A stretch of DNA of 64,000 bases. Origin: Kofleriaceae bacterium. Its GTDB lineage: Bacteria > Myxococcota_A > Polyangia > Haliangiales > Haliangiaceae. This document shows, piece after piece, positions 4,462 to 64,000 of the stretch (within the stretch, counting starts at the first letter, position 1; each line of letters begins with the position of its first letter). Both the position numbers and the translations under genes were made by a program. Location: contig DASYDE010000107.1 in NCBI GenBank assembly GCA_036499725.1, forward strand, positions 22,095 through 86,094, given 5' to 3'. The notes below the pieces were generated by a model that was given only the letters and a program-made list of their open reading frames with translations, did not search any database and was not told the origin of the DNA.

Positions 4462-4474
4462 TCGAAGAGCTTGC

Positions 4475-8565: not shown

Positions 8566-8580
8566 GCACCTGTATCTATT

Positions 8581-41570: not shown

Positions 41571-41593
41571 CGCCGCAATGGTAAATACGGGGT

Positions 41594-44709: not shown

Positions 44710-44977
44710 GGACTGGCGAGCTGGCGGCCGTCGCGTGGAGCGCTTTCGCGACCCGCTCGTGCGCTTCGAAGTCTGCGCGACGGCTTTCTTCGCTGGGCCA
44801 GCTCGGGTCGAGCGCTTGCTGATCACGACGAAGAACGTCGCCGATCCGGATCGCCTCTGCCAACCCAAAACGGTCGAGACGTTCGCGCCAGTAACGCCGC
44901 TTCCCTTCCCGGATTCCGTCCCAGTCGCGCGCGAGATACGCGCGAACCCCGAATGGATCGGGCGGTAACCGAGACAT
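44681..44977 (-). CDS. small hypothetical protein (98 aa), possible partner of the NTase
   Basis: From ATG 44977 (MSRLPPDPFGVRAYLARDWDGIREGKRRYW...). Protein-like composition with lower G/C at third positions than its neighbours. Contains RADFEAH (an Rx5H pattern). Overlaps the NTase start by 29 nt. Confidence 0.45.
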   Translation of the reverse strand: MSRLPPDPFGVRAYLARDWDGIREGKRRYWRERLDRFGLAEAIRIGDVLRRDQQALDPSWPSEESRRADFEAHERVAKALHATAASSPVRARRARRVR

Positions 44978-44996
44978 ACAAGAAGGGTAGCATCGG

Positions 44997-46808
44997 CTAC
45001 AGCATGCGCGTGGCGGCGACGACAAAGCACTCGTCGGACTTGCAGGCGAGAGCCCAGTACGCACCGCGATGCCACGGCTCGTAGGTCAGCGTCTCGGCGG
45101 CCGTTCCGAGGCGTTTCCACTCGTGACCGACGCTGTAGATCAGGATCTCGTAGTCACCATTCCCGTTCAGCTCGGGCGGCAGGATGACCCGACGCTGGCG
45201 CGTGACGCCGATGCGCTCGATGACACCAGCCCACGCATCGGTTCCCGAGCGGCGCCACCGAGCAAGCAGCAGCGTGCTCGCGGGAAGAGGCGGTCGATCA
45301 CCGAGAAAGTCGACGACGAGATCGACCTGCTGCACCGACGGTTGGCGCGTGCGCATCCGCGTGACGCCCGCGAGCCCGGCCATCTGCACGGCGCCGACAT
45401 CGAGCCCGCGGACGGGCCCCATCGCGAAGCCGCTCGTGTCGGTGGTGGGAGTGACACGCGGAACGATGCGGACGTCGGAGATACCGAGCGGCGCGTCGAG
45501 ATCCATCGAGCGGTACGCGATGTCTGCGAGCCCGAAGTACCGCGAGACCAGCGCTCGCTTGTCGTCGAACCGCATGTCATCGCCCAGGAACCACCACGAC
45601 GTGTCGACCTGATCGAACGCGTCGAGCGTCACGATCGAGCCAGGCGTCGACGCAGCAAGCTCGGCGAGGCGATCCGTGCTCTCGAGACTCAGCCGGTAGT
45701 AGAGCGGCATCGTGCGCGCCGCCGCGTACGTGCTGGATGCGATCGCGAGGAAGACGAACGCCGCGAGCCGCTTGTTCGTGGTGAGCACCGCGTCGGCAAC
45801 GCCGATGACCGTCGCGAGGAGCAGCGCGCACGGAAACAGGAAGAAGCGCGGCCCGAGCTTGGGCGAGACGAACAACGTGATGACCACGAGCGCCCCGGCA
45901 GCGAGCGCCCATCCGACGCGCTGGAGCGGTTGGCGTTGCGACTCTCGCTCGCGGTCGTGCGATCCCAGGACGACAACAATCGCGAGCAGAACAAGCGCGG
46001 GCGCGATCGCGAGGACAAAGTCGCTCACGATCTCGAGGTTATTGACGACGCCCCGCTGGGCGAGCCGACCGAGCAACGAGACCTTTGTCGCGAGACCGGC
46101 GTACCGCTCGCCCTGCCCCGGCGCGAAGAAGATCGCGGCGAAGCCCATCACCATGCCGAACGCACCGGCGAGCGCGAGCGAGGGCCGCTGCTCTCCCATG
46201 CGATAGCGCCACGCCGCGTACGCCATGCAGTACACGACGAGCGTCGGGCCCGTGTGCTCGTTGGCAGCGCCCGCGAGAACACCGAGGAGGCCGAACGCGA
46301 GCGACGCCAAGATGCCGCCCTCGCCCGTCGGACGCAGGCGCAGGACAGCGAGGAACCACAGCTGGATCGCCGCACCGAGCAGGTAGTTGGCGCTGTAGGC
46401 GCGCGAGAAGATCACCATGCCGATCGACGGCAGCGCGAACCACGCGACACCGATCGCGATGGTCGTGAGTGCGAGATCGCGGCCGCGACGCAGCGAGGGG
46501 ACCCGCCCGATGCCGATCGTGACCACGGCGACGACGAGCGCGAGAAACGCGAGCGGCGTGAGGACCTCCGCGAAGCCAGCGATCTTGTACGAGAGATAGG
46601 TCGCCCACTGCCCGACGCGCGGGTTGGAGTGCACGTACTGATCGATGCCGTACGCTCCCCAGCGCGCGAACGAGAACGGCTCGGCGCCCGTGTCGCGCGC
46701 GACGTTCCACGCGTCGTACGTGAACGGCTCGCAGTGCATCACGATGCCGATGTGCAGCGCCGTGACAGCGATGAAGGCCGCGAACAACAGGCGTCCGAGC
46801 CAGCTCAC
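44997..46808 (-). CDS. polytopic membrane protein, GT-C-like family B paralog 1 (large C-terminal extracytoplasmic domain)
   Basis: 603 aa from GTG 46808, 14 nt after the flippase stop. Many TM segments. Shares FTYDAW, NPRVGQ, LTPL and the C-terminal W.LGDD block with genes 57344 and 59191. Confidence 0.75.
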   Translation of the reverse strand: MSWLGRLLFAAFIAVTALHIGIVMHCEPFTYDAWNVARDTGAEPFSFARWGAYGIDQYVHSNPRVGQWATYLSYKIAGFAEVLTPLAFLALVVAVVTIGIGRVPSLRRGRDLALTTIAIGVAWFALPSIGMVIFSRAYSANYLLGAAIQLWFLAVLRLRPTGEGGILASLAFGLLGVLAGAANEHTGPTLVVYCMAYAAWRYRMGEQRPSLALAGAFGMVMGFAAIFFAPGQGERYAGLATKVSLLGRLAQRGVVNNLEIVSDFVLAIAPALVLLAIVVVLGSHDRERESQRQPLQRVGWALAAGALVVITLFVSPKLGPRFFLFPCALLLATVIGVADAVLTTNKRLAAFVFLAIASSTYAAARTMPLYYRLSLESTDRLAELAASTPGSIVTLDAFDQVDTSWWFLGDDMRFDDKRALVSRYFGLADIAYRSMDLDAPLGISDVRIVPRVTPTTDTSGFAMGPVRGLDVGAVQMAGLAGVTRMRTRQPSVQQVDLVVDFLGDRPPLPASTLLLARWRRSGTDAWAGVIERIGVTRQRRVILPPELNGNGDYEILIYSVGHEWKRLGTAAETLTYEPWHRGAYWALACKSDECFVVAATRML

Positions 46809-46822
46809 ACAGGCACCATAGC

Positions 46823-48100
46823 CTAGAGCCGCACGCCGGTGATCTTGCGGACCATCCCGACGAGGAGCACGCACCCGACGACTAACCCAACGGCCGTCGC
46901 GATCGCCGCGCCCTCGAGCCCCAACGTCGGGATCAGGACGTAGTTGCCGACAAACGCGACGGCGAACACGAGCGCCGACATCACGGTGTGCCAGCCGGGC
47001 TTGGCCGCCATCAGCAGCATCTGGTTGAACGGCTGCCACGGGGACGAGAGCGCGAGTCCGGCCATCAGGAACGCGAACGGGATCGCCCCTTGCGCGAACT
47101 CTGCGTTCCCGACGAGGAGCGGCACGACATACGGGTACAGCACGGCGGATGCGATGCACGCGACGAGCATCAGCGGCACGAACCAGCGGCGCGTGCGCTT
47201 GACGAGAATGTGGATCAGCTCGACGCGTTTCCCCGCGAGCTCGTGCGCGAGCACCGGGTTCACGTTATTCGTGACGACGACGCCGAGCTGCATCGCGCCC
47301 TCGAACAGCGCGGCAGCGAGTGCGTAGATACCGACGGCATGATCGTCGAGCGCGATCCCCAGCATCCATACATCGAGCTTGCTGTTCACCTCGAACAACA
47401 GCGTCGCGGGCAGACCACGCGCGCCATAGCTGACGTGCGCCCTGACCCAGCGCATCCAGGACGACGCGCCGCGCACCTTCACCGTCGCGAACATCTCGCC
47501 GAGCAGCACGAGCATCAGCGCGCCCTCGGCAAACGACCACAGACCGCCGAGCTGCGCTCCGTCGATCTCCATCACGCGCGCACCGACGAGAGCGATCGCG
47601 ATCAGGATGTAGCGCAGCGACGTGTAGATCGCGAACGCGCGCATCCGGCGCAGACCGTTGACGATGCCGAACAGCACCTTGTTGAGCGCGAAGAAGAATA
47701 CGCCGGGCGCGACCATGCGCAAACCGATGGTGACGCGCGGACTGTCGAGCAGATGACCGAGCGCAGGAGCGAATGCACAGCACGCCGCTGCCGCCGCCGC
47801 CGCGAACACCACCGTCGGAACCACCGCACCGACGGCGACCGACGCGACGCGCTCCGGGTCATGAGGATCCTCGGCGATCGCGCGCAGCACGCTGTACTGC
47901 AGCCCGCACGCCCCGATCACCGCGTACGCGAAGAACGCGGGCGTCACGAGGTTGAACGCACCGAGCGCCTCCGCGCCCCACCAGCGCCCGATCATGAACT
48001 GCAGGCCGAGGCCGACGATCGCGAGCAGACCGACGGGGACGACGTTCCAGATCACGTCACGGCGTAAGCGCGCCCCGTCGACGTCGCTTTGCTCCGTCAC
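46823..48100 (-). CDS. MOP-superfamily polysaccharide flippase (Wzx-like)
   Basis: 425 aa, about 12 TM segments, with a 'polysaccharide biosynthesis protein'-type N-terminus (VIWNVVPVGLLAIVGLGLQFMIGRWWGAEALGAF). GTG start abuts the upstream stop (TGAGTG). Confidence 0.8.
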   Translation of the reverse strand: MTEQSDVDGARLRRDVIWNVVPVGLLAIVGLGLQFMIGRWWGAEALGAFNLVTPAFFAYAVIGACGLQYSVLRAIAEDPHDPERVASVAVGAVVPTVVFAAAAAAACCAFAPALGHLLDSPRVTIGLRMVAPGVFFFALNKVLFGIVNGLRRMRAFAIYTSLRYILIAIALVGARVMEIDGAQLGGLWSFAEGALMLVLLGEMFATVKVRGASSWMRWVRAHVSYGARGLPATLLFEVNSKLDVWMLGIALDDHAVGIYALAAALFEGAMQLGVVVTNNVNPVLAHELAGKRVELIHILVKRTRRWFVPLMLVACIASAVLYPYVVPLLVGNAEFAQGAIPFAFLMAGLALSSPWQPFNQMLLMAAKPGWHTVMSALVFAVAFVGNYVLIPTLGLEGAAIATAVGLVVGCVLLVGMVRKITGVRL

Positions 48101-50056
48101 TCAGTACAACTTGGGCGCCGCATTGATGATCTGCAGCGCTTCTTCTGCGGAGAAGCCGATCAACTGCGCGTACTCGCGGATCGAGGGCCAGCGCGGCTTG
48201 GAGTATTCGATCGCGCGCGCGAGTGCCACGTCGCGCGTCAGGTGGCCTTCGCGCACCATGTTCGCGAGCATCACCTCGTCCTCGGTGAACCCGGCGATCG
48301 TCTGGTAGATGTAGTTGTAGAACGCGGCCGTACCGTCGCCGATGCGCCAGGTCGTCGTCGTGTCCTCGGCGATCTCCCAGTCGTACTCGTGGCGGATCGT
48401 GTTGACGATCGTGTCCTCGTGCCAGTCGATGTACTGGAACAGGTAGAGGAAGTCGTCCTTCACCACGAACGTTTGCCAGAACGCATTCCACGTGTCGAAC
48501 AGCGACTCGTTGATGTAGCGCGGGTTCAGCGCGTACTGCTTGGCGTGATACCAGAGCATGCCCGCCTTGTTCCGCAGCGACATGCGCGTGAGCACGTTGC
48601 CGTGGTCATCCTGCGGCACGCCCATCAGGCCGGTTTTATAGGGCGCGTCCTCGATCATGTTGCCGGTGCAGAAGATGACGAGCTTGATGCCCGTCTCTTT
48701 CCGCAGCTCGCGCGCGTACGAGTAGAACTCTTTGTCGCCCGCCATGAACAGCGTGACCATCCCGATCTCGGGACGCTTCAGCCACGCGTCGACGTTCTTG
48801 CGCACGTAGCGGCGCTTGGCCGTGATGTCCGCCGCGCGGACGATGTGCTCGACGCCGAGCTTGCCGCACACGCGCGCCTGATTGCGCCGCGCGAGGTCGG
48901 TGACCATGCCCCAGTCGTACGTGTACGCGACCGGGTTCATGCCGAGGTTCTTCTTCACGTAGTGCAGGCCGTACGACGAATCACGCCCGCCGGAGAACGC
49001 GAGGATCACGTCGGGACTGCCGTCCTTGCTGCGGTACGGCTCCACGGCGTCGAGCAGCGCTTGCTCGCCTTTGACCTTGATGGACTTCCACGTGCGGCAG
49101 TAGTGGCAGACGCCGTCCTTGTCGAAGCCGACATACGGATACGTCGACGGGAGAATGCACTTGGTGCAGCGCTGCAGGCCGGAGAGCTTGGGCGTGTGGT
49201 CGACGATCTGGACGACGTGACCGTTCGGCCGGAAGTCCTCGCTCGGGACAGGCTCGGGCGCCGTGCTCGTCAGCGAGAACGCGTGGCGGCGCATCCCTTC
49301 GAGGTGCAGCACGAGCGCATGGCCGGCGCGGATCTGTTCGATGCGCGCATCGGGTCCAAGGCGCGCGGATAGCACCTTGTCGTCGAGAACGCGCTGGAGA
49401 ATGAACCGCTCCGATGCGAACGCGAACAGCAGCCCGTCGCTGCTCGTGAGCTGGAACAGCGAGCCCGTGTTCGTCGCGAGCAGCATCGCGTCGAGGTTGT
49501 CGAACAGCATCGCGATGGACGCGGAGCCCTGTACGTCCGCGAACGTCGCGCGCGTGGCCTCGACGAGATCGTTGCTCTTGTTCAGCCGCGTTCGCAGCAA
49601 CGACGCGAGCGTCTCGCTATCGAGCTCGCCGATGCGCACGAGCTCTGGGTGGGCGGCCGCGAGCTCCGCGTCGTTCACCACGATGCCGTTGTGCAGCGCG
49701 ACCGCGCCGTACGTGATCACGGGCTGGTTGTTGTCGGAGTTGCCCTGCGATCCGTTGGTGGCCAACCGCGAGTGCCCCGCGATGGCGAGCGCCGGTCCGA
49801 TCGACTGCACGCGCCGGACGTCGTAACGATCGAGGGCGCCCTCCAGCATGGTCGTGAGCTTGGGGTTCGCGAGCAGGTCGCTCACGCTGCCGCCCTGCTT
49901 CAGAACTTCGATGCCGGTGCCGTGGTGAACCGCGAGTCCCGCTGCCTCGCGTCCGCGCGTTTCACTGAAGCGCAGCAGGGCCAGGGCGAGGTCGCGCGCG
50001 GTCTGTCGTTCGACTCGTGGGTCGCTCGCGCAAATGACGCCAAAGATGCCGCACAT
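48101..50056 (-). CDS. fusion of class-II (Ntn) glutamine amidotransferase with a WbpG-type N-acetyl-sugar amidotransferase (PP-loop ATPase)
   Basis: 651 aa. MCGIFGV N-terminal nucleophile plus a GATase-II body. Then CTKCILPSTYPYVGFDKDGVCHYC (zinc-ribbon-like) and the PP-loop LAFSGGRDSSY, as in WbpG/WbuX-type enzymes. Confidence 0.85.
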   Translation of the reverse strand: MCGIFGVICASDPRVERQTARDLALALLRFSETRGREAAGLAVHHGTGIEVLKQGGSVSDLLANPKLTTMLEGALDRYDVRRVQSIGPALAIAGHSRLATNGSQGNSDNNQPVITYGAVALHNGIVVNDAELAAAHPELVRIGELDSETLASLLRTRLNKSNDLVEATRATFADVQGSASIAMLFDNLDAMLLATNTGSLFQLTSSDGLLFAFASERFILQRVLDDKVLSARLGPDARIEQIRAGHALVLHLEGMRRHAFSLTSTAPEPVPSEDFRPNGHVVQIVDHTPKLSGLQRCTKCILPSTYPYVGFDKDGVCHYCRTWKSIKVKGEQALLDAVEPYRSKDGSPDVILAFSGGRDSSYGLHYVKKNLGMNPVAYTYDWGMVTDLARRNQARVCGKLGVEHIVRAADITAKRRYVRKNVDAWLKRPEIGMVTLFMAGDKEFYSYARELRKETGIKLVIFCTGNMIEDAPYKTGLMGVPQDDHGNVLTRMSLRNKAGMLWYHAKQYALNPRYINESLFDTWNAFWQTFVVKDDFLYLFQYIDWHEDTIVNTIRHEYDWEIAEDTTTTWRIGDGTAAFYNYIYQTIAGFTEDEVMLANMVREGHLTRDVALARAIEYSKPRWPSIREYAQLIGFSAEEALQIINAAPKLY

Positions 50057-50068
50057 ATTGGTGAATCA

Positions 50069-50086
50069 GGCGAAGGGAGCTTCGCC
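50069..50086. promoter_or_regulatory. palindrome in the divergent promoter region between the amidotransferase operon and family A paralog 1
   Basis: GGCGAAG-GGAG-CTTCGCC within the 71-nt intergenic region 50057-50127, next to an AT-rich TGCATATATTG stretch. Confidence 0.3.
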
Positions 50087-50127
50087 CTTATACACAGGAT
50101 CGCAAGCTTTGTGCATATATTGCCCCC

Positions 50128-51498
50128 GTGCGCGCCGGCCTAAAGCGAGTCCTTCGCGCGCTCGCTGCCGTCCCGCCGTTTGCCGTGCTGGGAGTCACGT
50201 GGCTGCTCGTCATTCTCTACGCGTACCCCGGCCAGATGACCGTGGATTCCTACGATCACCTGCGAGAAGCACGGACCGGCCTCTACACCGATGCGCACCC
50301 GCCGATCCTGAACCTCCTGTTCAAGGTCGCCGACGCGATCGTGAAGGGCCCCGTGCTGATGCTGTTCGCGCAGACGGTGATGCTGCTGCTCGGACTGTAC
50401 CTCGTGCTGCGCCGCCGCTTCTCCAAGCCCGCCGCCGCGTGGATCGCGAGCGCGATGTTCCTCTCGCCGCCCGTCATGTTGCCGATGACCATGATCTGGA
50501 AAGACGGCCTGATGGCCGGCGCGATGATGCTCGGCCTCGCGGGCATGCTCTCGACGAAGTACCGCAGCGCGAAGATCGCCGGCCTCGTCGCCATCTTCAT
50601 CGCGACCGCCGTTCGCTACAACGCGTTCGCGGGAACGTTCGGCCTCGTCGTGTTCGCGTTCGAGTGGCGACCGATGCGTTGGTACAAGCGCTACGCGATC
50701 TCGTTTGTCACCTGGCTCGCGATCACGATGGCCGCGTTCCGCATCAACGACGCGATGACCGACGTGCACATGCACTACTGGCACACGTCGCTCGCGCTCT
50801 ACGACATCGCCGGCACGCTGACCTACACCGACGACGATCTCACCGACGCGCAAGTGATGGATCTCTGCGCGGGCACCGGTCTCCAGATCACCACGAACAT
50901 CCAAGTCGAGATGCGCTCGATGTACTCGACGCGCGACTTCTTCTCGCTCGTCGCCAATCAAGATCACCGCCTGTGGAACGTCCCGCTCGGCGGCACCGAT
51001 CCACCACCCGCAGCCCAGGTCGCCGCCATCGAGGCCGCGTGGAAGCGCATCGTCACGAAGTACCCCCACGGCTACGTCAAGCATCGCGTGAGCGTCCTGT
51101 CCAAGGTGCTCGCGCTCAAGATCGGCCGCATCACCGGCCTCGTCTCGCAGCGCGACTACTTCAACTATCTCGGCGACGGCTACGGCCTGCACGTGCACTC
51201 GTGGAAGTTCCAGTACGCGCTCTCCGATGCGGAGCGCTGGCTCTCCGAGAACATGCTGTTCATGTTCCGGCCGTGGGTCTACCTACTCGTCGCGATTGGC
51301 CTGTTGTTGATGGCGCTGCGCCTCCCCGACGCGCTCGCCCTGCTCCTCTCCGGGATCGGGATGGAGTCCACACTCGTGTTCCTCGCCCCGAGCACTGATT
51401 ATCGGTACAGCCACTGGATGATCACCGCGACGATCGTCGCGTTCGCGATTCTGCTCGGCACGCGCCTGCAGAAGGCTCGCGCTCAACCCTCCACCTGA
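50128..51498 (+). CDS. polytopic membrane protein, GT-C-like family A paralog 1
   Basis: 456 aa with a GTG start. Motifs YPGQMTVDS, DAHPP, KGPVLM, PPVML...IWKDGLMAG and C-terminal DYRYSHWMI, shared with genes 55942, 62333 and (degenerate) 61242. Confidence 0.75.
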   Translation: MRAGLKRVLRALAAVPPFAVLGVTWLLVILYAYPGQMTVDSYDHLREARTGLYTDAHPPILNLLFKVADAIVKGPVLMLFAQTVMLLLGLYLVLRRRFSKPAAAWIASAMFLSPPVMLPMTMIWKDGLMAGAMMLGLAGMLSTKYRSAKIAGLVAIFIATAVRYNAFAGTFGLVVFAFEWRPMRWYKRYAISFVTWLAITMAAFRINDAMTDVHMHYWHTSLALYDIAGTLTYTDDDLTDAQVMDLCAGTGLQITTNIQVEMRSMYSTRDFFSLVANQDHRLWNVPLGGTDPPPAAQVAAIEAAWKRIVTKYPHGYVKHRVSVLSKVLALKIGRITGLVSQRDYFNYLGDGYGLHVHSWKFQYALSDAERWLSENMLFMFRPWVYLLVAIGLLLMALRLPDALALLLSGIGMESTLVFLAPSTDYRYSHWMITATIVAFAILLGTRLQKARAQPST

Positions 51499-51516
51499 CG
51501 TATACACACGCCGGAC

Positions 51517-52476
51517 ATGCCAGCGCCGCGCGTCGCCGTACTCGTGCCTTGTTACAACGAGGAAGCGGCGATCACGAAGGTCGTCGCCGACTTCAAGGCG
51601 GCGCTCCCCGACGCCGTCGTCTACGTCTACGACAACAACTCGACGGATAAGACCATCGAGGTCGCGACCGCCGCGGGCGCCGAGGTCCGCCGCGAGATGC
51701 GCAAGGGCAAGGGCAACGTCGTGCGCCGGATGTTCCAGGACATCGACGCCGACATCTACGTGATGGTCGACGGCGACGACACGTACGACGCATCCGCCGC
51801 CCCCAAGCTCGTCGACCTGCTCGTCGAAGACAACCTCGACATGGTCGTCGGTCGCCGCATCGAGACGCACCAAGAGGCGTATCGCGCGGGCCATCGCCTC
51901 GGCAACGCGGTCCTCACTGGCCTCGTGCGCTGGCTGTTCGGCGCGTCCATCGTCGACATGCTCAGCGGCTACCGCGTGTTCTCGCGCCGCTTCGTGAAGT
52001 CATTCCCGTCGTTCTCGCGCGAGTTCGAGATCGAGACCGAGCTCACCGTCCACGCGATGCAGATGCGCATGGCCGTCGCCGAGGTGAACACCGACTACAA
52101 GGAGCGCCCGCCCGGCTCCGTGTCCAAGCTGCGCACGTTCCGCGATGGCTGGCGCATCCTCATGACGATCAGCAACCTGATGCGCAACGAGCGCCCGCTG
52201 CTGTTCTTTGGACTGCTCGCGCTCCTCTTCACCGGCGTCGCCGTCGCGCTCGGCATCCCCGTCCTCACGCACTACCTGAGCACCGGCCTCGTGCCGCGCC
52301 TACCCACCGCCGTGCTGTGCATGGGCCTGGGCCTCATCGGCGTCATCGCCGTCGCGACCGGCCTGATCCTCGACCTCGTCTCGCACGTTCGCCGCGAGGG
52401 CAAACGCCTGGCGTATCTCAGCTACCCTGCGCCGAGGCCGAGCGAGGGTGCTCCTCCTCGGCTGCAGAAGCCGTAG
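51517..52476 (+). CDS. GT2 glycosyltransferase, polyprenyl-phosphate-sugar synthase type (GtrB/ArnC/DPM1-like)
   Basis: 319 aa. VLVPCYNEE, YDNNSTDKT and DGDDTYD (DxD) motifs. C-terminal TM pair (LLFFGLLALLFTGVAVALGIPVL; LCMGLGLIGVIAVATGLILDLV). Confidence 0.9.
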   Translation: MPAPRVAVLVPCYNEEAAITKVVADFKAALPDAVVYVYDNNSTDKTIEVATAAGAEVRREMRKGKGNVVRRMFQDIDADIYVMVDGDDTYDASAAPKLVDLLVEDNLDMVVGRRIETHQEAYRAGHRLGNAVLTGLVRWLFGASIVDMLSGYRVFSRRFVKSFPSFSREFEIETELTVHAMQMRMAVAEVNTDYKERPPGSVSKLRTFRDGWRILMTISNLMRNERPLLFFGLLALLFTGVAVALGIPVLTHYLSTGLVPRLPTAVLCMGLGLIGVIAVATGLILDLVSHVRREGKRLAYLSYPAPRPSEGAPPRLQKP

Positions 52477-52488
52477 GTGGTGCCACAT

Positions 52489-52584
52489 CTTCCCGTTCGG
52501 GACGATTTTCGCGGATTCATCGTGTTTCTTCCCCTCCAGGAAGATTTGGGCCCATTCGCCTACTGTCTTCCCGTACGGTAAGAG
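52489..52584 (+). promoter_or_regulatory. three TCTTCCC-containing inverted repeats upstream of hipB (operator-like)
   Basis: TCCCG-TT-CGGGA (52491-52502), TCTTCC-N6-GGAAGA (52527-52544) and CTTCCCGTACGGTAAG (52567-52582, core CCGTACGG perfect). The TCTTCCC cores are spaced 38-39 bp apart. The last site abuts the hipB ATG. Confidence 0.45.
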
Positions 52585-52585
52585 A

Positions 52586-52858
52586 ATGGCCAGCCGCCCG
52601 AAAACGTCCACAACGGTCAGCGCCACCCAAGCTCGCTCCGTTACCGACGTCGGAAAGCTGGCGCGAGACGCGCGGAAGCGTGCCGACCTTGACCAGGAGA
52701 CTGCCGCCGCGCTCTCGGGTGTGGGGCCGCGGTTCCTGGGGGAGCTCGAACGCGGAAAACCCAGCGTGCAACTGGGCCTCGTACTACAGGTTCTCGAGCG
52801 CCTGGGCCTCGACGTTTGGATCGCGCCCCGTGGTTGGCGCCCAGAGCAGCCCAAGTGA
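52586..52858 (+). CDS. hipB: HipB-like XRE-family HTH antitoxin
   Basis: 90 aa from ATG 52586. HTH segment ARKRADLDQETAAALSGVGPRFLGELERGK. Its stop overlaps the hipA GTG (GTGA). Confidence 0.8.
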   Translation: MASRPKTSTTVSATQARSVTDVGKLARDARKRADLDQETAAALSGVGPRFLGELERGKPSVQLGLVLQVLERLGLDVWIAPRGWRPEQPK

Positions 52859-54126
52859 CGAGCAAGAAGCCAAACGGCGAGCTCATCGTTCGCTACGAAG
52901 CGCGCACGGTTGGCGCGTTGAGCGCGGACAGAGACCAGTTCGGCCTGACGTACGATCCGAAATGGCTGGCGGCTCCCGACGCCTTTCCCGTCTCCACGAG
53001 TCTGCCACTCCGCTCCGAGCCGTACGCGGGCCGCGAAGCACACGCGTTCTTCGCGAACTTGTTGCCGGAAGGAGGAGCGCGCGAGGCCGTGAGTCGTCGA
53101 CTCGGACTCTCCGTCGACAATGACCTGGCTCTTCTTCGAGCGCTCGGAGGCGAATGCGCAGGTGCCTTTGCGGTCGTCGACGCAAGATCTCGTCCGCCCG
53201 ATCCCGACGACTACGCGTACGAGGAACTGGGCCAACGTCGTCTCGAGGAGCTGGTCGACAACGACACTGTACCTCTGCTGTTGGGCGGGCCCCCAACGCG
53301 GCTTTCGCTCGCTGGCGCCCAGGACAAATTGCCCGTCGCAGTCTTCGACGGAGTCATCTACCTGCCGCTTGAAGGAGCGCCAAGCACGCACATTCTCAAG
53401 CTCCCCCACCGACGGTTCAAGCACATCCCACTGAACGAGGCGTACGTCATGGGATTGGCGACGCGGATCGGGCTGCCGACTGCTCCGTCCGAGTTGCTGT
53501 TGCGCACCGAGCCTCCGAGCCTGCTCGTGCAGCGCTACGACCGAATCGTCGACGGTGAAGGTGTTCGGCGCCTCCACCAAGAGGATCTGTGTCAGGGCCT
53601 CGGACTCCCCCCGACGAAGAAGTACGAGGCAGAGGGTGGCCCGAGCCTCGCTACGACGCTCGACTTCACGAGTCAGCACTCCGCAGAACCAACGACCGAT
53701 CTACGGCGCATCCTCGGTTGGCAGGCGTTCAACGTGATCGTCGGAAACTGCGACGCTCACGGCAAGAACGTTTCGTTCCTGTACACCAGCACCACGCTGC
53801 GTCTCGCTCCGTTCTACGACCTCCTCTCGACGTTGCAGTATCGCGATCTCACGACAGAGCTTGCGATGAGCGTCGGCGGACGCCGCACACCGAGCGAGCT
53901 GCATCGCGCGCAGTGGGAACAACTCGCGAAGGACGCCCGCATCGGCTCATCGCTCGTCCTCGAACGCGTCCGCGACGTCGCCGAACGCTGCATCGCCGAG
54001 ATTCCCGCGTGGTCTGCCGAGTACCGGGAGCGCTACGGGCGCCGCTCGATCCTCGAAACGCTGCCAGCCTGGATCACGAAGAGCGCTCGGAGGACGCTTC
54101 GCCAGCTCGCGAAGAAGAGACCGTAG
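52855..54126 (+). CDS. hipA: HipA-family serine/threonine kinase toxin
   Basis: 423 aa from GTG 52855. HipA motifs LSLAGAQDKLPV, GNCDAHGKNVSF and LAPFYDLLST, with N-terminal coupling-domain-like sequence. Confidence 0.9.
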   Translation: MTSKKPNGELIVRYEARTVGALSADRDQFGLTYDPKWLAAPDAFPVSTSLPLRSEPYAGREAHAFFANLLPEGGAREAVSRRLGLSVDNDLALLRALGGECAGAFAVVDARSRPPDPDDYAYEELGQRRLEELVDNDTVPLLLGGPPTRLSLAGAQDKLPVAVFDGVIYLPLEGAPSTHILKLPHRRFKHIPLNEAYVMGLATRIGLPTAPSELLLRTEPPSLLVQRYDRIVDGEGVRRLHQEDLCQGLGLPPTKKYEAEGGPSLATTLDFTSQHSAEPTTDLRRILGWQAFNVIVGNCDAHGKNVSFLYTSTTLRLAPFYDLLSTLQYRDLTTELAMSVGGRRTPSELHRAQWEQLAKDARIGSSLVLERVRDVAERCIAEIPAWSAEYRERYGRRSILETLPAWITKSARRTLRQLAKKRP

Positions 54127-55114: not shown

Positions 55115-55124
55115 CCCTGCGTTT

Positions 55125-55793
55125 CTACTTCGCTCTAAAGAAATAGTCGAACAGAATGCGGACCGCTTGGAGGGCGCCCTGCCCCTTCGCGCGCGAGTGG
55201 TCCGTGTAGCGGATCGTGACGGGAACCTCGACGACGCGGAGCTGCGCGCGCCGGATCGACCGCAGCAGCTCGGACGCGTGCGCCATGCGGTCCTGTGTGA
55301 TCCGGATCCTACCCGCGACGCTCGCCTTGAACGCACGCAGGCCGCAGTGCGCATCCGTGAGCGAAAGGCCGCTCAACGAGTTGGACACGACTGTCGCGGT
55401 CCGCAGCAGTGCCTTCCGCCCCGCGCCCGCCCCCTCGATCTCCTTGCCCAGAAACCGCGACCCGAGCGCCATATCCGCATCGGCGAGCGCGTCCACGAGC
55501 GTGGGGATGTCCTCCACGCTGTGCTGCCCATCCGCATCGAACGTGACGATCGTCCGCGCCCCGCGCCGCACGGCGTAGTCGATGCCGGTCTGGAGTGCCG
55601 CCCCTTGCCCGAGGTTGATGGCGTGCCGCACGACCGTGACGCCCGGCACCTTGGCAGCCGCCGCCGTGTCATCGCGTGAACCGTCGTCGACGACCACGGT
55701 CGGGTAGCCCGCCGCGACCACGCCCTCCACGACGCCGCGGACGACCTTGCCCTCGTTGAACGCAGCGATCACCACGAACACGTCGGCGTGCAC
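55125..55793 (-). CDS. GT2 glycosyltransferase, short soluble type (PpgS/Rv3631-like architecture)
   Basis: About 222 aa from GTG 55793, preceded by GGAGAGG. FVVIAAFNEG, VDDGSRDDT and FDADGQH motifs; no TM segment. The track start 55943 would collide with the divergent gene start at 55942. Confidence 0.85.
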   Translation of the reverse strand: MHADVFVVIAAFNEGKVVRGVVEGVVAAGYPTVVVDDGSRDDTAAAAKVPGVTVVRHAINLGQGAALQTGIDYAVRRGARTIVTFDADGQHSVEDIPTLVDALADADMALGSRFLGKEIEGAGAGRKALLRTATVVSNSLSGLSLTDAHCGLRAFKASVAGRIRITQDRMAHASELLRSIRRAQLRVVEVPVTIRYTDHSRAKGQGALQAVRILFDYFFRAK

Positions 55794-55941
55794 GGCCGCC
55801 TTATACCTCTCCGCTCGGGGAAGTGGGGAGGTTGCACTGGCTGCGCACGCGGCTCGCGACAGGCTTTCACGGGCGAGACTCCTGTCTTGGGAGGCTGATG
55901 GTGTAACAGTAGCCGCCGCTGTGACGACCTCTGCGCGAGAC

Positions 55942-57342: not shown

Positions 57343-57343
57343 C

Positions 57344-59194: not shown

Positions 59195-60951
59195 AGTCGC
59201 GGTACGGCGCAACGGCGTTTGCTGCTCTCACGTTCGTCGTGCACGCGACGTTCGCGTGGCTCTATCCGATGCTGCGCGACGACTGGACGGCGCTGCTGTG
59301 GAAAGCGGAGCACGCCGACTACCACCCCGGCGGTTGGGCGCTGTCGTTCCTCGGCTCGCACTTCACGCTCGGCGAGCTGTTCACGTACGTCCTCGCTGTC
59401 GCACCACTGCTGCACGTCGTGCTCACACCGATCGTCTTCCTGCTGATGATCTGGGGAATCCTGTGCGCATCGCAGCGCCGGCTCGTGCGCTTCGACACGT
59501 GGAGCGACGTCGGGCTCCTCGTCGCCGCCTCGACGCTGTGGTGGGTCGCGCAGCCGCACGGAGGCATCGCCGTCTCCGAGCGCGACATGGTGGCGCTGTA
59601 TCTCTACGGAACCACCATCGGGGTATGGCTGTACGCCGCGTACGTCTGTGGCTGGGAGATCCGCGGACGCCGCACGATCCTCGTCACCGTCGCCGCGTTC
59701 CTCGTCGGTCTCGCGTCGCGCCAGATCGCGGTCGTCGGCACGGTGTGGTCGATGTGGTTTGTCCTCGGCAAGCCGCGCCATGAACGCCTGCGCTGGCACT
59801 GGGCCGTCGCGATCGCGCTGCTCGTCGGCACGATCGTCGGCTACCTCGACACGCCCCGCTTCACGATCCCGCGCAGCGACTTCGATCAAAACGCGAACTT
59901 TGTCTTCCAGTCCCTGCGCGAGAACGGCGAGCTCGTCACGCTGATGATGGTCTTCGCGTTCGCGAAGCTCTTGCTCGACCGCCGCGCAAACGTCGCCTCT
60001 GTCGACGAGCTTCCCGACACCGCGCCCGCGTTCCGCTGCCTCTGGATCGCGGTCGGCGTGGAGATCATCTCGATCTGGGGCCCGCGCTTCACGGAGTCCT
60101 CGCTGCTCCCCGCCTCGGTCCTCCTCGCGATCGGCGCCGTACCGTTCATCACCTGGCTCGCGCGCACACCGCTCGTGAAAAAGGCGCTGTTCGTCGTGCT
60201 TCCGATGATCCTCGTCGCGACATGGATCAACGGCCTGCTGATGCTCACGCACATCCACGGCATCTACGCCGATCGTATGGACGCCATCGCAGCCGCGCCG
60301 CGCGACTCCATCGCCCAGGTCCCGCCGTACGACATGTTCTCGACGGACTGGTTCACCGGCGAGGACTGGAGCAGCACGTCCCTCCGCGAGCGCGTCGCCA
60401 TCGACATCTTCCACCTCGAGGACATCGAGTACACCGCACCGTTCGGAGCGCTCGAGCGTAACCCGCGCCTCGCCGTGGAGATGCACCTCGAGGGCCGGCC
60501 GGCCGAGGCGAGCAAGCAGGTTCCCGTCCCGCAACGCTGGGCGTCCAACATCAGCGTCGCGCGCGCTCAGTTCGAGCGGTTCGTGCGGTCCCTGCACCGC
60601 GCCGGCTACACGGACTTCTCCGCGACGCTCTCCGTGAAGCTCGAGAACCCGCGCGCGAACGGACGGCCGCTGCTGCTCGCTCGCGTCGACAAGGGCACGC
60701 TCGTCTCTCCGCGCGTGTCGCGCGGCAACCCGAACGTCGACGGGACCATCAAGTTCAAGATCCGCAACCTCCCCTCCGCATACGGAGAGCGCTTCCTGAT
60801 CACGGCCGGCGTCGTGACCGACCTGCCCGCAACGCAGAGCGCGTTCGAGCTCCAGCCGCAGACCATCGATCGCCACACGCTCATCACGTGCTCGACGGTG
60901 GACTGCCTCGTGCTCGATTCCTTCATTCCCAAAGCAACCGCCCCGCAGTGA
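59191..60951 (+). CDS. polytopic membrane protein, GT-C-like family B paralog 3
   Basis: 586 aa from GTG 59191 (GTGA overlap). LRDDWTAL and LTPIVF motifs, with a C-terminal domain (DWFTGEDW). The track start is 59122. Confidence 0.75.
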   Translation: MKSRYGATAFAALTFVVHATFAWLYPMLRDDWTALLWKAEHADYHPGGWALSFLGSHFTLGELFTYVLAVAPLLHVVLTPIVFLLMIWGILCASQRRLVRFDTWSDVGLLVAASTLWWVAQPHGGIAVSERDMVALYLYGTTIGVWLYAAYVCGWEIRGRRTILVTVAAFLVGLASRQIAVVGTVWSMWFVLGKPRHERLRWHWAVAIALLVGTIVGYLDTPRFTIPRSDFDQNANFVFQSLRENGELVTLMMVFAFAKLLLDRRANVASVDELPDTAPAFRCLWIAVGVEIISIWGPRFTESSLLPASVLLAIGAVPFITWLARTPLVKKALFVVLPMILVATWINGLLMLTHIHGIYADRMDAIAAAPRDSIAQVPPYDMFSTDWFTGEDWSSTSLRERVAIDIFHLEDIEYTAPFGALERNPRLAVEMHLEGRPAEASKQVPVPQRWASNISVARAQFERFVRSLHRAGYTDFSATLSVKLENPRANGRPLLLARVDKGTLVSPRVSRGNPNVDGTIKFKIRNLPSAYGERFLITAGVVTDLPATQSAFELQPQTIDRHTLITCSTVDCLVLDSFIPKATAPQ

Positions 60952-60970
60952 CGGCGTATAACGAGCCGGC

Positions 60971-61339
60971 ATGTTGATCCGGATCATCCTCATCGGCGCG
61001 ATGGCCGCGACGGGATGGTTCGTGTTCCGCCGGCGCCACCGCCTGCCGATCCACATCATGCTCGTGTTCGGCCTCCTGACGGTCGGCGCGCTCGCCGTCA
61101 TCTTCCCGCTCGCGACCACCGACGTCGCCCACTTCCTGGGCGTCGGTCGCGGCACCGACCTCATCACGTACATCGCGATCGTGACCGTGATGTTCGTGCT
61201 GGTGCACTACTACACCAAGTTCGTCGAGCTACAGACGCAGGTCACGCAGCTGACGCGGGAGCTGGCGATTCTGCGAGCGGAAGTGGATCGGGTGGCGCCG
61301 CCGGAGAAGGCTCCGGCCGACGAAACCGCCGCCAGCTGA
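60971..61339 (+). CDS. small membrane protein, DUF2304-like (Rv3632-type partner of GT2 enzymes)
   Basis: 122 aa. Three to four TM segments, then an amphipathic or coiled tail (ELQTQVTQLTRELAILRAEV), the typical DUF2304 layout. Confidence 0.7.
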   Translation: MLIRIILIGAMAATGWFVFRRRHRLPIHIMLVFGLLTVGALAVIFPLATTDVAHFLGVGRGTDLITYIAIVTVMFVLVHYYTKFVELQTQVTQLTRELAILRAEVDRVAPPEKAPADETAAS

Positions 61340-62336
61340 GCGCCGCCGCGAGCAGCGTGCTGATGATCAGCCAGTTCGAGTGCTCGAACCGCGGAGCGCC
61401 ATCGACCCAGTAGAGCGCGAGCTCGTGCGCCATGCCGCTCGCCGCAATTGCGAAGGGAAGCGGGTCCCGACGGATCGCGAGAAACCCGAATAGCGCCACT
61501 TCGAGAATGAAGTAGACCAACGGATAGAACAGCGGAGTCTTGCCGGATGCGCGGACGATCTTCTCGATAGCGCTCTGCACGCGGGAATGCTTGGCGACCA
61601 CGTGAAGCTGCTTGCCGACATCTTTGCTGATAACGAACCGCGTGTACGTGGGCCGCCACGTGCGCACAGGGCTAGTGCCGAGCGTTTGGGCAAATGCCAT
61701 CCCACGATCGGTGCGAACTTTGGAATGTTCGTCTCCATCGACGAGCGCCTTGTTAACGCCGACAGATATGAAGGCAAGCGTCACGGTCGCGATGAGCGCA
61801 GCACCAATTTGCCTCCAGCGCGTGGAGAGACGAATCGGCAACGCGATCGCAAGCAACGGAAATGCCGCGGCCGCACCGAGAGGCCGCACACATCCTGCGA
61901 CGAGTAGCGCGATACCGCCGGCAATCTGCGCGGGCCTATTCTTGGCGCGAAGTCCGACGAGTCCGAGCAGTAGAAACGCTACGAACTGGGCGTCAGGACA
62001 GATGATCGATGATGTCGCCAGAACCGGAGGCAGTAACAACAACGCCCCAGCGAGATAGGCCGACGCGCGATCGGATAGTGCGCCGCGCATGAGGTGATAG
62101 GCGCACAGCAACAATGCGGTGCCCTGAAGCAAGAACATCCCGGATGGTCCCGCGATGAACCACTCCATTACGCTCCACAACGACGTCATTGTTGGCGACT
62201 GAGCACCCGAGTACCAGGCGCTTCGCGCGTCCGCGAGCATGTTTACGCCGTACTCGTCGACGTAACCGGGATATGCCGCGCAGACGAAGACCAACCACGC
62301 CGTCAGCAGGATCGTGTTCGGAGTCCAACGTTTCAC
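61242..62336 (-). CDS. polytopic membrane protein, family A paralog 3 (motif-degenerate)
   Basis: 364 aa from GTG 62336 (GTGA overlap with the upstream stop). Colinear with family A, but the motifs are altered: DS to EY, HPP to QSP, WKD to CPD, DYRYSHW to RFEHSNW. The 3' end overlaps the convergent DUF2304 gene by 98 nt. Confidence 0.65.
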   Translation of the reverse strand: MKRWTPNTILLTAWLVFVCAAYPGYVDEYGVNMLADARSAWYSGAQSPTMTSLWSVMEWFIAGPSGMFLLQGTALLLCAYHLMRGALSDRASAYLAGALLLLPPVLATSSIICPDAQFVAFLLLGLVGLRAKNRPAQIAGGIALLVAGCVRPLGAAAAFPLLAIALPIRLSTRWRQIGAALIATVTLAFISVGVNKALVDGDEHSKVRTDRGMAFAQTLGTSPVRTWRPTYTRFVISKDVGKQLHVVAKHSRVQSAIEKIVRASGKTPLFYPLVYFILEVALFGFLAIRRDPLPFAIAASGMAHELALYWVDGAPRFEHSNWLIISTLLAAALSWRRFRRPEPSPAAPPDPLPLAESPAPASAA

Positions 62337-63661
62337 TCGCGCCTCCTCGTCAGCCGCTGCTTCACCATCAGGACAACTGCGATCGACACGCTCGTGATCA
62401 ACCAATGCGAGTAGCGATAGTCTGGATTCGCGCCGGCGGGAAAAAAACTGAACTCGTAGAGAACGCCGCTAAGGAGCAGTGCTGCCGGCAAACGAGCGCG
62501 GCACAGCGCAAGTCCGACGACGACCGCGAGTAGTGCGTAAAACCAAGGCGAAAACAGCGGCGTGTGGACACCGATCCAGTACACGACTACGGAGACCCGC
62601 CACTGAAAGCGCGACCACGTCGCATCGTGGTCGATCATGTCGACTTGGTTCCCCGAATCCTCGAGGAACCAATTCCACATAATTCCCGGCGGATGTTCTG
62701 GATTCATCCCGAGGAGGTCTTGGAAATCGTTCCAGTGGTACGCGAGGTACGCCCCCGGATCGCCCAGCACCAGATCTTTCCAGGCTCTGCTCAACGCAGC
62801 TGACTCTTCCGGCGTCTCCGCAAGACGGAACATTCGCTCGTCGCCTTGCGTGATGCGGTAGGCGCCGCGCAACGCGTACAGGATTCGCGCTTGCGGTTGA
62901 AAGCCGTGGTCGATCACGAGCGGGGTGCCTCGAAGGACCTCGCGCAAGTCGTCGTCGGATCGGGTGTCACCGAACGCGATGACGCCGACGATGTCGGACC
63001 ACATCGGGGTAAGTTGAACGTGCGAGGTTGTGAGCACCCGACTAACGCCAAACGTGAGTCCGACAAGAACGACAGCCGCGCCACCAACCACCGCGAGGCG
63101 ACGCGCCAGACGCATGCCCGACCTCAGCTCGAAGACGAGCAAGATGATCGGAAACACCGCGACGAGACCGTTGTGACGGACGAGAGCCGCGATGATCAGG
63201 AGAACGAGTCCAAAGATGCGCGCTCGGAGTCGGGGTTGGAGGAGGTAGCCCGTCCCGGCAACGAGGTACGCGGCCATCTGGGCGTCCTTCCAGATCACGG
63301 CCATCACCGACAGTATTGGCGGAAACAGCAACGTGCCGATCGCTGCCCATGCAGCTCCGCGCGGGCAGAACGCTCGCTCGAAGATCATGCGAGCTCCGAC
63401 GAGAAACAGTCCGCCTTGCAGCAGGAACATCAAGACGGGGCCAGCGATGATGCGGTCCAGGAGCGACCACTCGGCGGCCATGAACGGCGGATGCCCGTCG
63501 GAGAACGTGAGCGCGCGCGCCTCCAGTAGCTGGTTCACCGAGTCGTTGCTCATGTACCCGGGAAACCCGTAGAGCACGAACAGAGCGAACCCGAAGAGCA
63601 GGATCTGGCGTGGGGACCGCGCCGCCACCCACACCTTTACGCGCTCGAACAACTGACCCAC
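62333..63661 (-). CDS. polytopic membrane protein, GT-C-like family A paralog 4
   Basis: 442 aa with a GTG start. Motifs FPGYMSNDS, DGHPP, AGPVLM, PPIL...IWKDAQMAA, DYRYSHWLI. Confidence 0.75.
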   Translation of the reverse strand: MGQLFERVKVWVAARSPRQILLFGFALFVLYGFPGYMSNDSVNQLLEARALTFSDGHPPFMAAEWSLLDRIIAGPVLMFLLQGGLFLVGARMIFERAFCPRGAAWAAIGTLLFPPILSVMAVIWKDAQMAAYLVAGTGYLLQPRLRARIFGLVLLIIAALVRHNGLVAVFPIILLVFELRSGMRLARRLAVVGGAAVVLVGLTFGVSRVLTTSHVQLTPMWSDIVGVIAFGDTRSDDDLREVLRGTPLVIDHGFQPQARILYALRGAYRITQGDERMFRLAETPEESAALSRAWKDLVLGDPGAYLAYHWNDFQDLLGMNPEHPPGIMWNWFLEDSGNQVDMIDHDATWSRFQWRVSVVVYWIGVHTPLFSPWFYALLAVVVGLALCRARLPAALLLSGVLYEFSFFPAGANPDYRYSHWLITSVSIAVVLMVKQRLTRRRE

Positions 63662-63703
63662 GCCTTGCCGAGCCTACAACACGCGTGATTCTCTCGCGGC
63701 AGC

Positions 63704-64000
63704 ATGCGCCTCTCTTTCGTGATTCCCACGCGGAACCAGGCGCGCTTCATTCGGCAGTGCATCGACGGGTGCTTCGATCAGAACGTCGACGACGCGGAGG
63801 TCGTGGTGGTCGACGGAGCATCCACGGACGACACCCGTGATGTCCTCGCGAGCTACGGCGATTGCGTCCGCTGGATCTCGGAGCCCGACCGCGGCCAGTC
63901 CGACGCGATCAACAAGGGCGTCCGCATGGCGACGGGCGACGTGATCGCGTGGATCAACTCCGACGACTACTACGCGAGCCCGACCGCTCTGCGAGCATTG
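63704..64000 (+). CDS. GT2 glycosyltransferase (N-terminal 99 aa; 3' end outside window)
   Basis: ATG 63704, MRLSFVIPTRNQARFIRQCIDGCFDQ...VVVVDGASTDDT...WINSDDYY (DxD-type). The frame is open to the window edge. Not in the ORF track because it has no stop. Confidence 0.8.
   Translation, partial: MRLSFVIPTRNQARFIRQCIDGCFDQNVDDAEVVVVDGASTDDTRDVLASYGDCVRWISEPDRGQSDAINKGVRMATGDVIAWINSDDYYASPTALRAL

Follow-up and report, generated by a model that had tools for sequence, protein, structure and literature searches.

Results

Two Families of Polytopic Membrane Proteins in a Putative Glycan Locus

The window analyzed here is a stretch of 64,000 nucleotides from a Kofleriaceae bacterium (contig DASYDE010000107.1), the last 19 kb of which carry a putative glycan locus. 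Its protein-coding open reading frames (ORFs) were picked by their G+C content at third codon positions (GC3) in a region of 62-68% G+C. An earlier note on this DNA, made from the sequence alone, had counted seven polytopic membrane proteins belonging to two paralog families, and this count is borne out by BLASTP and by GC3, which amounts to 0.82-0.91 in five of the seven genes, to 0.77 in A3, and to 0.71 in A4. The four members of family A (A1 to A4) and the three of family B (B1 to B3) are encoded together with three glycosyltransferases of family 2 (GT2a, GT2b, and GT2c), a flippase candidate, a sugar amidotransferase, and a small DUF2304 protein (Table 1).

Table 1. Genes of the putative glycan locus, with positions in the window and the main evidence for each assignment.
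Feature	Position	Strand	Evidence
B1, family B (DUF6056) GT-C candidate, 603 aa	44997..46808	-	Pfam PF19528 E 8e-32
MOP/Wzx-family flippase candidate, 425 aa	46823..48100	-	Pfam Polysacc_synt E 8.5e-12; weaker Polysacc_synt_3, MatE
Sugar amidotransferase, 651 aa, GATase + WbuX-like PP-loop	48101..50056	-	TIGR03573 E 1.1e-37
A1, family A GT-C candidate, 456 aa, 10 transmembrane segments	50128..51498	+	AlphaFold2 + Foldseek
GT2a, polyprenyl/dolichyl-phosphate hexose synthase-like GT2, 319 aa	51517..52476	+	NCBIfam AglJ E 1.5e-64
hipB-like helix-turn-helix gene	52448-52858	+	between GT2a and GT2b
hipA toxin gene	52816-54126	+	between GT2a and GT2b
GT2b, ArnC/GtrB/PgfS-like undecaprenyl-phosphate sugar synthase, 346 aa	54074..55114	-	NCBIfam PgfS E 2e-75
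GT2c, PpgS/GacI-like soluble GT2, ~222 aa	55125..55793	-	NCBIfam PpgS E 1.6e-63
A2, family A GT-C candidate, 466 aa	55942..57342	+	BLASTP vs A1 33% identity, E 5e-67
B2, family B (DUF6056) GT-C candidate, 616 aa	57344..59194	+	Pfam PF19528 E 3.7e-45
B3, divergent family B member, 586 aa	59191..60951	+	Pfam PF19528 E 1e-7
DUF2304 small membrane protein, 122 aa	60971..61339	+	Pfam PF10066 E 2.9e-20
A4, short divergent family A member, 364 aa	61242..62336	-	BLASTP vs A1-A3
A3, family A GT-C candidate, 442 aa	62333..63661	-	BLASTP vs A1, A2: E 3e-57, 1e-61
Soluble GT2, truncated by window end	63704..64000	+	full gene 261 aa, end ~64489; Glycos_transf_2 E 5e-28

A1, A2, and A3 are mutually 30-33% identical over their full length (BLASTP, E 1e-57 to 5e-67), and A4 matches these three with E-values of 1e-16 to 2e-22. 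The family was aligned from 58 sequences, 55 of which are metagenomic homologs, and none of these 58 members gives a significant match to any Pfam or NCBIfam model. A search of 1.84 billion cluster representatives with the family profile recovered 4,788 proteins at E≤1e-3, of which 960 remained at E≤1e-30. Some metagenomic relatives of 850-1,390 aa (P0241, P0292, and P0334) give between two and six separate matches to the profile and look like tandem fusions of GT-C modules.

All 24 invariant residues of family A are kept in A2 and A3. A4 had been described in the earlier note as a degenerate copy, which is true insofar as 14 of the 24 invariant positions are altered or deleted, including D40, D55, H57, K125, and the DYRYSHW motif, and the periplasmic domain is shorter by about 100 aa. 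However, the gene has not simply decayed, since two orthologs with 67-70% identity carry the same deletion and the same substitutions; these rule out a fresh pseudogene and mark A4 as a maintained subfamily. This conserved short subfamily is probably either non-catalytic or re-specialized, as judged from the sequence, and A4 shows weak matches to the Pfam families PMT and Mannosyl_trans4. The seven GT-C candidates proposed earlier all fall into the two GT-C-like families, but only six of them keep the invariant residues of their family.

Within family B, B1 and B2 (E 3e-34) and B2 and B3 (E 5e-21) are more closely related by BLASTP than B1 and B3 (E 7e-8). All three belong to Pfam PF19528 (DUF6056), with scores of 111 bits (B1), 154.9 bits (B2), and 31.5 bits (B3) at a gathering threshold of 27, and this model is matched by no member of family A. 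The two families were handled separately, because a profile-profile comparison with hhalign returned a probability of 1% and no detectable kinship. The earlier verdict that neither family could be named therefore stands for family A, which is represented by no Pfam or NCBIfam model, but not strictly for family B. Regarding the function of DUF6056, nothing was found in the literature, the only listed paper that names it being a study of antiphage defence markers with one passing mention.

The family B alignment comprises 50 sequences, 47 of them metagenomic homologs. As judged from this and the family A alignment, the motifs quoted in the earlier note are present and fall mostly on invariant or near-invariant columns, except that NPRVG occurs in B1 and B2 only, not in B3. 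B1 keeps D30, W32, NPR, and NEH, and B3 keeps D30, D31, and W32 without the NPR, NEH, and PGQ..RY motifs. PF19528 covers the membrane domain only, whereas the proteins from Kofleriaceae continue beyond it into a C-terminal domain of about 240 aa, which is predicted to be periplasmic and has conserved cysteines. This corresponds to the non-membrane domain of some 200 aa recognized previously, and it appears in the model of B2 as a beta-rich periplasmic domain of 240 aa, whose four near-invariant cysteines fit with this location. An invariant W..G(D/E)D motif lies about 30 residues past the last transmembrane segment. A PDB sequence search with the C-terminal domain alone returned nothing, and B2 gives a sub-threshold match to Pfam EpsG (21 bits versus 30.1, E 2e-4).

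Predicted Fold and Membrane Topology

Alignment-based AlphaFold2 models were obtained with high confidence for A1 (predicted local distance difference test 95.6, predicted template modeling score 0.93) and B2 (91.7 and 0.90, respectively). In Foldseek searches of the PDB, family A retrieved ArnT and PimE (probability 1.0, E 4e-3), followed by STT3, Pmt4, PIG-U, ALG3, Emb, and ALG6; for A1, ArnT is the top match, ArnT, PimE, and STT3 all reach a probability of 1.0, and Pmt4 reaches 0.98. Family B, represented by B2, retrieved STT3 subunits (probability 0.91-1.0, E 6e-3 upward) and PglB (0.72-0.77), and its best template modeling score (TM-score) was obtained with ArnT (0.40/0.44). Every match of either family with a probability of at least 0.8 is a protein of the GT-C fold, including the non-enzymatic PIG-U, a subunit of the GPI (glycosylphosphatidylinositol) transamidase that resembles GT-C proteins without having an enzymatic role.

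Structures of WaaL, Wzy, RodA, FtsW, SEDS proteins, or acyltransferases do not occur among the top 50 PDB matches listed for either family, transporters reach probabilities of at most 0.41, and CLC channels as well as PIG-U appear among the lower matches of family A. Wzy, ligase, and transporter folds were rejected on the basis of this absence or low probability among the listed matches, and no Pfam match to Wzy_C occurs in family A or B. A Foldseek search of family A against viral structures returned two uncharacterized archaeal-virus proteins and was uninformative. The GT-C fold assumed earlier for both families is accordingly probable from the models, but, at TM-scores of 0.3-0.44, not proven.

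Because a crude hydropathy-window prediction merged or missed helices, the transmembrane segments (TM) were taken from the AlphaFold2 helices and oriented by the positive-inside rule, counting lysine plus arginine residues over the two alignments. Family A is predicted to contain 10 TM with both termini inside (lysine plus arginine density 0.28 in cytoplasmic versus 0.09 in periplasmic loops), and family B to contain 11 TM with the N-terminus inside and the C-terminal domain outside (0.31 versus 0.06). This topology places all conserved motifs of both families at the periplasmic face, in agreement with the earlier expectation for the DS and DDW loops. They comprise D40, D55, H57, and P58 in loop 1, W-K125-D126, N165, and D424-x-RYSHW430 in family A, where residues 211-372 of A1 additionally form a periplasmic helical domain of 160 aa. 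In family B, the corresponding motifs are D30-D31-W32 and NPR in loop 1, PIPG, N183-E-H, and APGQ..RY between TM7 and TM8.

GT-C(A) enzymes are polytopic, with about 7-13 TM and a cytoplasmic N-terminus, as predicted here for both families. The arrangement of the conserved elements also recalls the GT-C(A) layout given in a study of PimE (PMC12041525), where a seven-helix core is joined by two juxtamembrane helices (JM1 and JM2), JM1 carries the catalytic Asp at its tip, and a donor arch separates TM7 from TM8. The A1 model shows helices at residues 39-50 and 59-71 between TM1 and TM2, with the invariant D40 at the helix start, while the helices of B2 (31-40 and 45-58) follow the invariant D30 and the near-invariant D31; between TM7 and TM8, both families have another conserved element on the periplasmic side. 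As modeled, the order of TM1, two helices, and TM2, the position of the Asp, and the TM7-TM8 element are those of the published layout (PMC12041525).

Putative Donor Synthases and Other Genes of the Locus

All three GT2 enzymes resemble polyprenyl-phosphate-sugar synthases at the sequence level. GT2a is closest to AglJ (218 bits) and also matches a dolichyl-phosphate hexose transferase model of NCBIfam (E 7e-27), GT2b matches PgfS (254 bits) and ArnC (PRK10714, E 2.6e-51, 174 bits), and GT2c matches PpgS (214 bits) over model positions 1-223 of 226, the alignments extending over nearly the full length for each enzyme. A C-terminal TM pair is present in GT2a (at about 229-247 and 266-284) and in GT2b. 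The earlier description of three GT2 enzymes, two of them with such a pair, is therefore correct, and the donor logic proposed with it has become stronger, all three being synthase-like. The other genes recognized at that time, coding for a Wzx-like protein, a DUF2304 protein, a sugar amidotransferase, and a further GT2 at the window edge, are confirmed by Pfam and NCBIfam matches.

The amidotransferase matches TIGR03573 (WbuX) over residues 296-643, and GATase_6/7 and the N-terminal parts of GlmS/PurF over residues 1-216. It consists of a WbuX-like N-acetyl-sugar amidotransferase fused to an N-terminal class-II glutamine amidotransferase of the N-terminal nucleophile (Ntn) type (MCGIFG). The DUF2304 protein passes the Pfam threshold and is encoded 5 kb away from GT2c in the window. 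Members of its family, GacJ and Rv3632, bind and stimulate GacI and PpgS, respectively (bioRxiv 10.1101/180810); from this report and from the adjacency of the two genes in relatives, the DUF2304 protein may be the partner of the PpgS/GacI-like GT2c. No GtrA-type protein was recognized by Pfam among the locus proteins scanned. In the known three-component scheme, a synthase acts together with a Wzx/MATE flippase and a GT-C enzyme (bioRxiv 10.1101/180810; PMC11127046), and the Wzx-like protein may therefore flip undecaprenyl-phosphate (Und-P)-linked sugars instead of, or besides, an oligosaccharide linked to undecaprenyl diphosphate (Und-PP).

Some gene starts deviate from those of the longest ORFs. 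GT2b was assigned a start at about 55114 (Met81 of the long ORF) from the BLASTP and NCBIfam alignments. GT2c was assigned a GTG start at 55793 behind GGAGAGG, which yields a 222-aa product fitting the length of the PpgS model and leaves a divergent intergenic region of 148 bp before A2, while the longest-ORF start would overlap the start of A2. B1 is the final gene of a minus-strand run comprising the amidotransferase, wzx, and B1. The hipBA toxin-antitoxin pair (GC3 0.74-0.76, below its neighbors) splits the glycan locus, and in a second locus from the Kofleriaceae (L057, at about 10 kb), DUF2304 and GT2c are likewise separated by a hipA homolog (59% identity). The GC3 values of A3 and A4 are likewise below those of other locus genes (mostly 0.82-0.92), and the segment at 62-64 kb has the lowest G+C content of the window (0.621), which suggests a different age, origin, or constraint of the sequence at 61242-64000. 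Consensus scans for promoters and terminators revealed nothing above shuffled controls.

Conservation in Related Genomes

When one genome was scanned for each species of GTDB, 149 family A stretches were detected, and 75 loci were kept. Almost all of these derive from Kofleriaceae, Haliangiales, or Myxococcota metagenome-assembled genomes (MAGs), and none from a cultured isolate. The earlier guess that the DNA belongs to the Myxococcota was correct. The sole family A locus outside the Myxococcota (L037, JBLMXA010000624.1, 3.4 kb) occurs in an "Acidobacteriota" MAG and may reflect a binning error or horizontal transfer. Co-occurrence and adjacency were counted in the 41 loci that span 15 kb or more, all from Kofleriaceae MAGs, and the profiling of conservation proposed in the earlier note shows that the gene set recurs there: family A is accompanied by family B in 29 of the 41 loci, by the amidotransferase in 27, by wzx in 26, by GT2b in 23, by GT2a in 20, by GT2c in 15, and by DUF2304 in 14. 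The most frequent adjacent pairs are amidotransferase-wzx (24 loci), amidotransferase-A1 (17), B1-GT2b (16), and GT2c-DUF2304 (15), and B2-B3 adjoin in seven.

Related loci contain up to six GT-C genes per 21-kb stretch and up to nine in 45 kb. The median best identities across loci are 66-78% for the donor-side genes, with GT2a at 76% and the amidotransferase at 72% (range 70-86%), versus 30-46% for the GT-C genes. Such a combination of conserved donor genes with divergent GT-C genes is the pattern expected if linkage specificities diversify. Three overlapping loci of one contig merge into a related 52-kb super-locus (L020, L050, and L071; contig DASTLB010000095.1, 38143-89823), which carries six genes of family A and three of family B. 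No match to Wzy, Wzz, or Wza was found in it, six of its ten largest unmatched ORFs having been scanned. It also encodes three more Pfam-less ORFs of polytopic-membrane-like appearance (579, 594, and 913 aa), FkbM and S-adenosylmethionine-dependent methyltransferases, and an LPG_synthase_TM (MprF flippase-like) protein adjoining a GT2-DUF2304 pair. Literature searches for glycan loci of Kofleriaceae or GT-C systems of myxobacteria returned nothing, and no characterized cluster was found to match the locus. A match to a known exopolysaccharide (EPS) or O-antigen cluster was one of three outcomes, besides a different fold and a cytoplasmic position of the acidic loops, that the earlier note would have taken as refuting its proposal, and none of them was observed.

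Flanking Regions

The left border is marked by an AbiEii/DUF6036/DUF2204 nucleotidyltransferase ORF (44164-45120, minus strand, GC3 0.73) overlapping the 3' end of B1, and two neighboring proteins with multiple bacterial immunoglobulin-like domains (Big_5) are encoded just upstream of the locus (40437-43036, plus strand). Further upstream genes include those for an adenosine deaminase, sigma factors, and an Omp85 protein. The sequence past the right-hand window end was obtained from an identical 11.4-kb Logan contig, which extends 5.3 kb beyond the window and contains five genes, coding in this order for the GT2 truncated in the window, a GT4-type GT1, an NAD-dependent epimerase, a 301-aa protein without assignment, and an AsnB-type asparagine synthase.

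The scanned ORFs at 9965-44167 include four without any Pfam match and none with a glycan-related one. As stated in the earlier note, no match to Wzy, Wzz, Wza, or an ABC exporter is apparent in Pfam scans of the 39 window ORFs from 9965 onward and of the five genes beyond the window, about nine ORFs at 270-9348 and 20873-21451 lying outside the scan.

Discussion

A Proposed Periplasmic Glycan Assembly Line Fed by Lipid-Linked Sugars

The locus probably represents a periplasm-facing line for the extension and branching of a glycan that is fed by lipid-linked sugar donors, a reading to which we assign a probability of about 0.6. The analysis shows the paralogy, the similarity in fold, the topology, the resemblance of the synthases to known families, and the conserved gene set, while the donors, acceptor, order of steps, and product are inferred and would be as follows. 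At the cytoplasmic face, GT2a, GT2b, and GT2c would each charge polyprenyl (undecaprenyl) phosphate with a single sugar taken from a nucleotide sugar, GT2c working together with the DUF2304 activator, while the fused GATase-WbuX amidotransferase would probably yield an acetamidino sugar precursor. The MOP/Wzx-family protein would flip lipid-linked intermediates. These could be the Und-P-sugars, a role already proposed for GacK, or, probably in addition, a primer linked to Und-PP that the soluble GT2 and GT4 enzymes encoded at the window edge and past it would build. In the periplasm, the six intact GT-C-fold enzymes (A1 to A3 and B1 to B3) would each make a different linkage in extending or branching the glycan, presumably employing as catalytic base the invariant Asp that heads the first juxtamembrane helix, by analogy with ArnT, PimE, and PglB. 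A4 would take part as a conserved paralog with a probably non-catalytic or re-specialized role.

Several observations weigh against this interpretation. The Foldseek E-values of about 4e-3 to 6e-3 and TM-scores of 0.3-0.44 are modest, and when the PDB was searched with the sequence profiles of the two families, only chance matches came up. The scores of all three GT2 enzymes stay below the NCBIfam equivalog cut-offs (325-529 bits), so their sugars cannot be named. All relatives are uncultured MAGs, the right-hand end of the locus falls beyond the available sequence, and no initiating phosphoglycosyl transferase, acceptor, or export component was identified for the locus. Finally, the soluble GT2 and GT4, epimerase, and AsnB genes just past the window edge imply that some of the glycan probably arises in the cytoplasm by a conventional route. 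The mycobacterial style of lipid-donor-driven assembly suggested in the earlier note is therefore supported in its donor logic, but its purely periplasmic version is not established against a hybrid or a decoration system. That a major envelope polysaccharide of Kofleriaceae is largely built in the periplasm, by 6-12 GT-C enzymes of hitherto unrecognized families using three undecaprenyl-phosphate sugars without a Wzy or ABC exporter, appears rather doubtful at present.

Alternative Interpretations

The locus might instead comprise several independent three-component systems of the Gtr/Gac type, which add side-chain sugars to an O-antigen or EPS backbone made elsewhere. Published systems of this kind share the same parts list, elaborate ones with several candidate GT-C enzymes having been noted, and the conserved donors and divergent GT-C proteins mirror the conserved GtrA/B with serotype-specific GtrC; the cytoplasmic glycosyltransferases adjoining the locus also fit. 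However, six intact GT-C enzymes per three donors in 19 kb, and up to nine GT-C genes in 45 kb of related loci, far exceed the linkages added by known decoration systems, and no match to a backbone polymerase or exporter occurs among the ORFs scanned within some 24 kb of this DNA and 52 kb of the relative. We consider decoration alone to be somewhat unlikely; still, the sequence by itself does not discriminate between the building of most of a polymer by a mycobacterial logic and the heavy decoration of a backbone that is synthesized elsewhere.

Protein glycosylation is another option, in which the STT3/PglB-like family B, the PMT-like family A, or both would act on secreted or surface proteins by transferring Und-PP-glycans en bloc or sugars from Und-P. 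The STT3 subunits and PglB are indeed the best structural matches of family B, and its W..G(D/E)D motif recalls by position the WWDYG motif of oligosaccharyltransferases, but it is not WWDYG, and the highest TM-score of the family is that with ArnT. Similarly, family A matches Pmt4 at a probability of 0.98, A4 gives the weak PMT and Mannosyl_trans4 matches, and GT2a is closest to AglJ, an enzyme of S-layer N-glycosylation. The two Big_5 proteins could be surface-exposed or secreted and serve as acceptors, but no link to the locus was found, and synteny in general ties no acceptor protein to it. Since three family B and four family A paralogs also exceed the needs of known systems, this option appears improbable.

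It is even harder to believe that the polytopic proteins are not glycosyltransferases at all, but Wzy-type polymerases or ligases, transporters, or non-catalytic scaffolds resembling GT-C proteins in the manner of PIG-U. The weak structural scores, the occurrence of PIG-U and CLC channels among the lower Foldseek matches, the EpsG match of B2, and the loss of invariant residues in A4 would be in line with such an assignment, which is nevertheless contradicted by the absence of WaaL, Wzy, RodA, and FtsW from the listed matches and by the low probabilities of the transporters. Moreover, invariant periplasmic Asp, His, Lys, and Arg residues occupy the positions expected of a GT-C active site, and the genes show a tight and recurrent linkage to those of polyprenyl-phosphate-sugar synthases.

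Significance

The existence of GT-C enzymes and of three-component glycosylation systems is already established; new here are a family A without any database model, a genomic context for DUF6056, and a GT-C-dense architecture that extends across a lineage of Gram-negative bacteria. If the proposed assembly line is real, the 4,788 cluster representatives of family A, for which Pfam and NCBIfam have no model, would make up a sizeable family of GT-C-like glycosyltransferases, and the locus would supply DUF6056 with its first functional setting. New GT-C families are still being founded, as exemplified by GT136 in 2024 (PMC11127046). Three lipid-sugar synthases together with 6-9 GT-C enzymes per locus are not a known feature of Gram-negative bacteria, and they suggest that a large-scale construction of glycans from lipid-linked donors in the periplasm, best known from mycobacteria, may operate in an abundant lineage of soil myxobacteria. 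The conserved pairs of synthase and GT-C genes would predict which donors and transferases belong together, and the enzymes could provide linkage-specific tools for glycoengineering. In the event that even the polysaccharide itself is built in the periplasm, the locus would represent a Gram-negative equivalent to the way in which mycobacteria assemble arabinan and mannan, and a further route of polysaccharide synthesis outside of the Actinobacteria.

Comparison with Known Systems

The modification of lipid A by ArnC and ArnT offers parallels in that GT2b aligns to ArnC over its full length and ArnT is the top match of family A and gives the best TM-score of family B. Unlike in that system, no other arn-type gene was recognized among the scanned locus genes, no Pfam match to PMT_2/ArnT occurs, and the 174 bits of GT2b against ArnC compare with an equivalog cut-off of 529.

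The three-component systems represented by GtrA/B/C, by GacI/J/K/L of Streptococcus pyogenes, and by the Citrobacter GT136 enzyme are built from a GT2 polyprenyl-phosphate-sugar synthase, a flippase candidate of the MOP/Wzx or MATE type, and a GT-C protein with a periplasmic active site, and the locus encodes candidates for each of these. The flippase candidate (Polysacc_synt/MatE-like) is encoded together with the synthases and GT-C proteins, as in these systems, and conserved donor genes are combined with divergent GT-C genes, as in those of the GtrA/B/C type. The pairing of GT2c with DUF2304 resembles those of GacI with GacJ and of PpgS with Rv3632, the GacI/GacJ module being completed by the Wzx-family protein GacK and the GT-C protein GacL (bioRxiv 10.1101/180810). 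The differences lie in the number of components, with three synthases and seven GT-C-like genes per locus rather than one of each, in GT-C families that lack any characterized member, and in the missing Pfam match to a GtrA-type protein among those scanned.

The assembly of arabinan, lipomannan, and phosphatidylinositol mannosides in mycobacteria (Emb, Aft, PimE, and Mpt enzymes with Ppm1/PpgS) differs from the locus in that the host is a Gram-negative myxobacterium, that the genes are clustered rather than dispersed, and that neither family belongs to the Emb, Aft, or PimE (GT87) families at the sequence level. The locus would nevertheless share with it the use of many GT-C enzymes and few polyprenyl-phosphate sugars for building or branching a glycan outside of the cytoplasm, and the similarity extends to individual components, as PimE and EmbB are among the structural matches, and GT2c resembles PpgS and is accompanied by an Rv3632-like DUF2304 protein.

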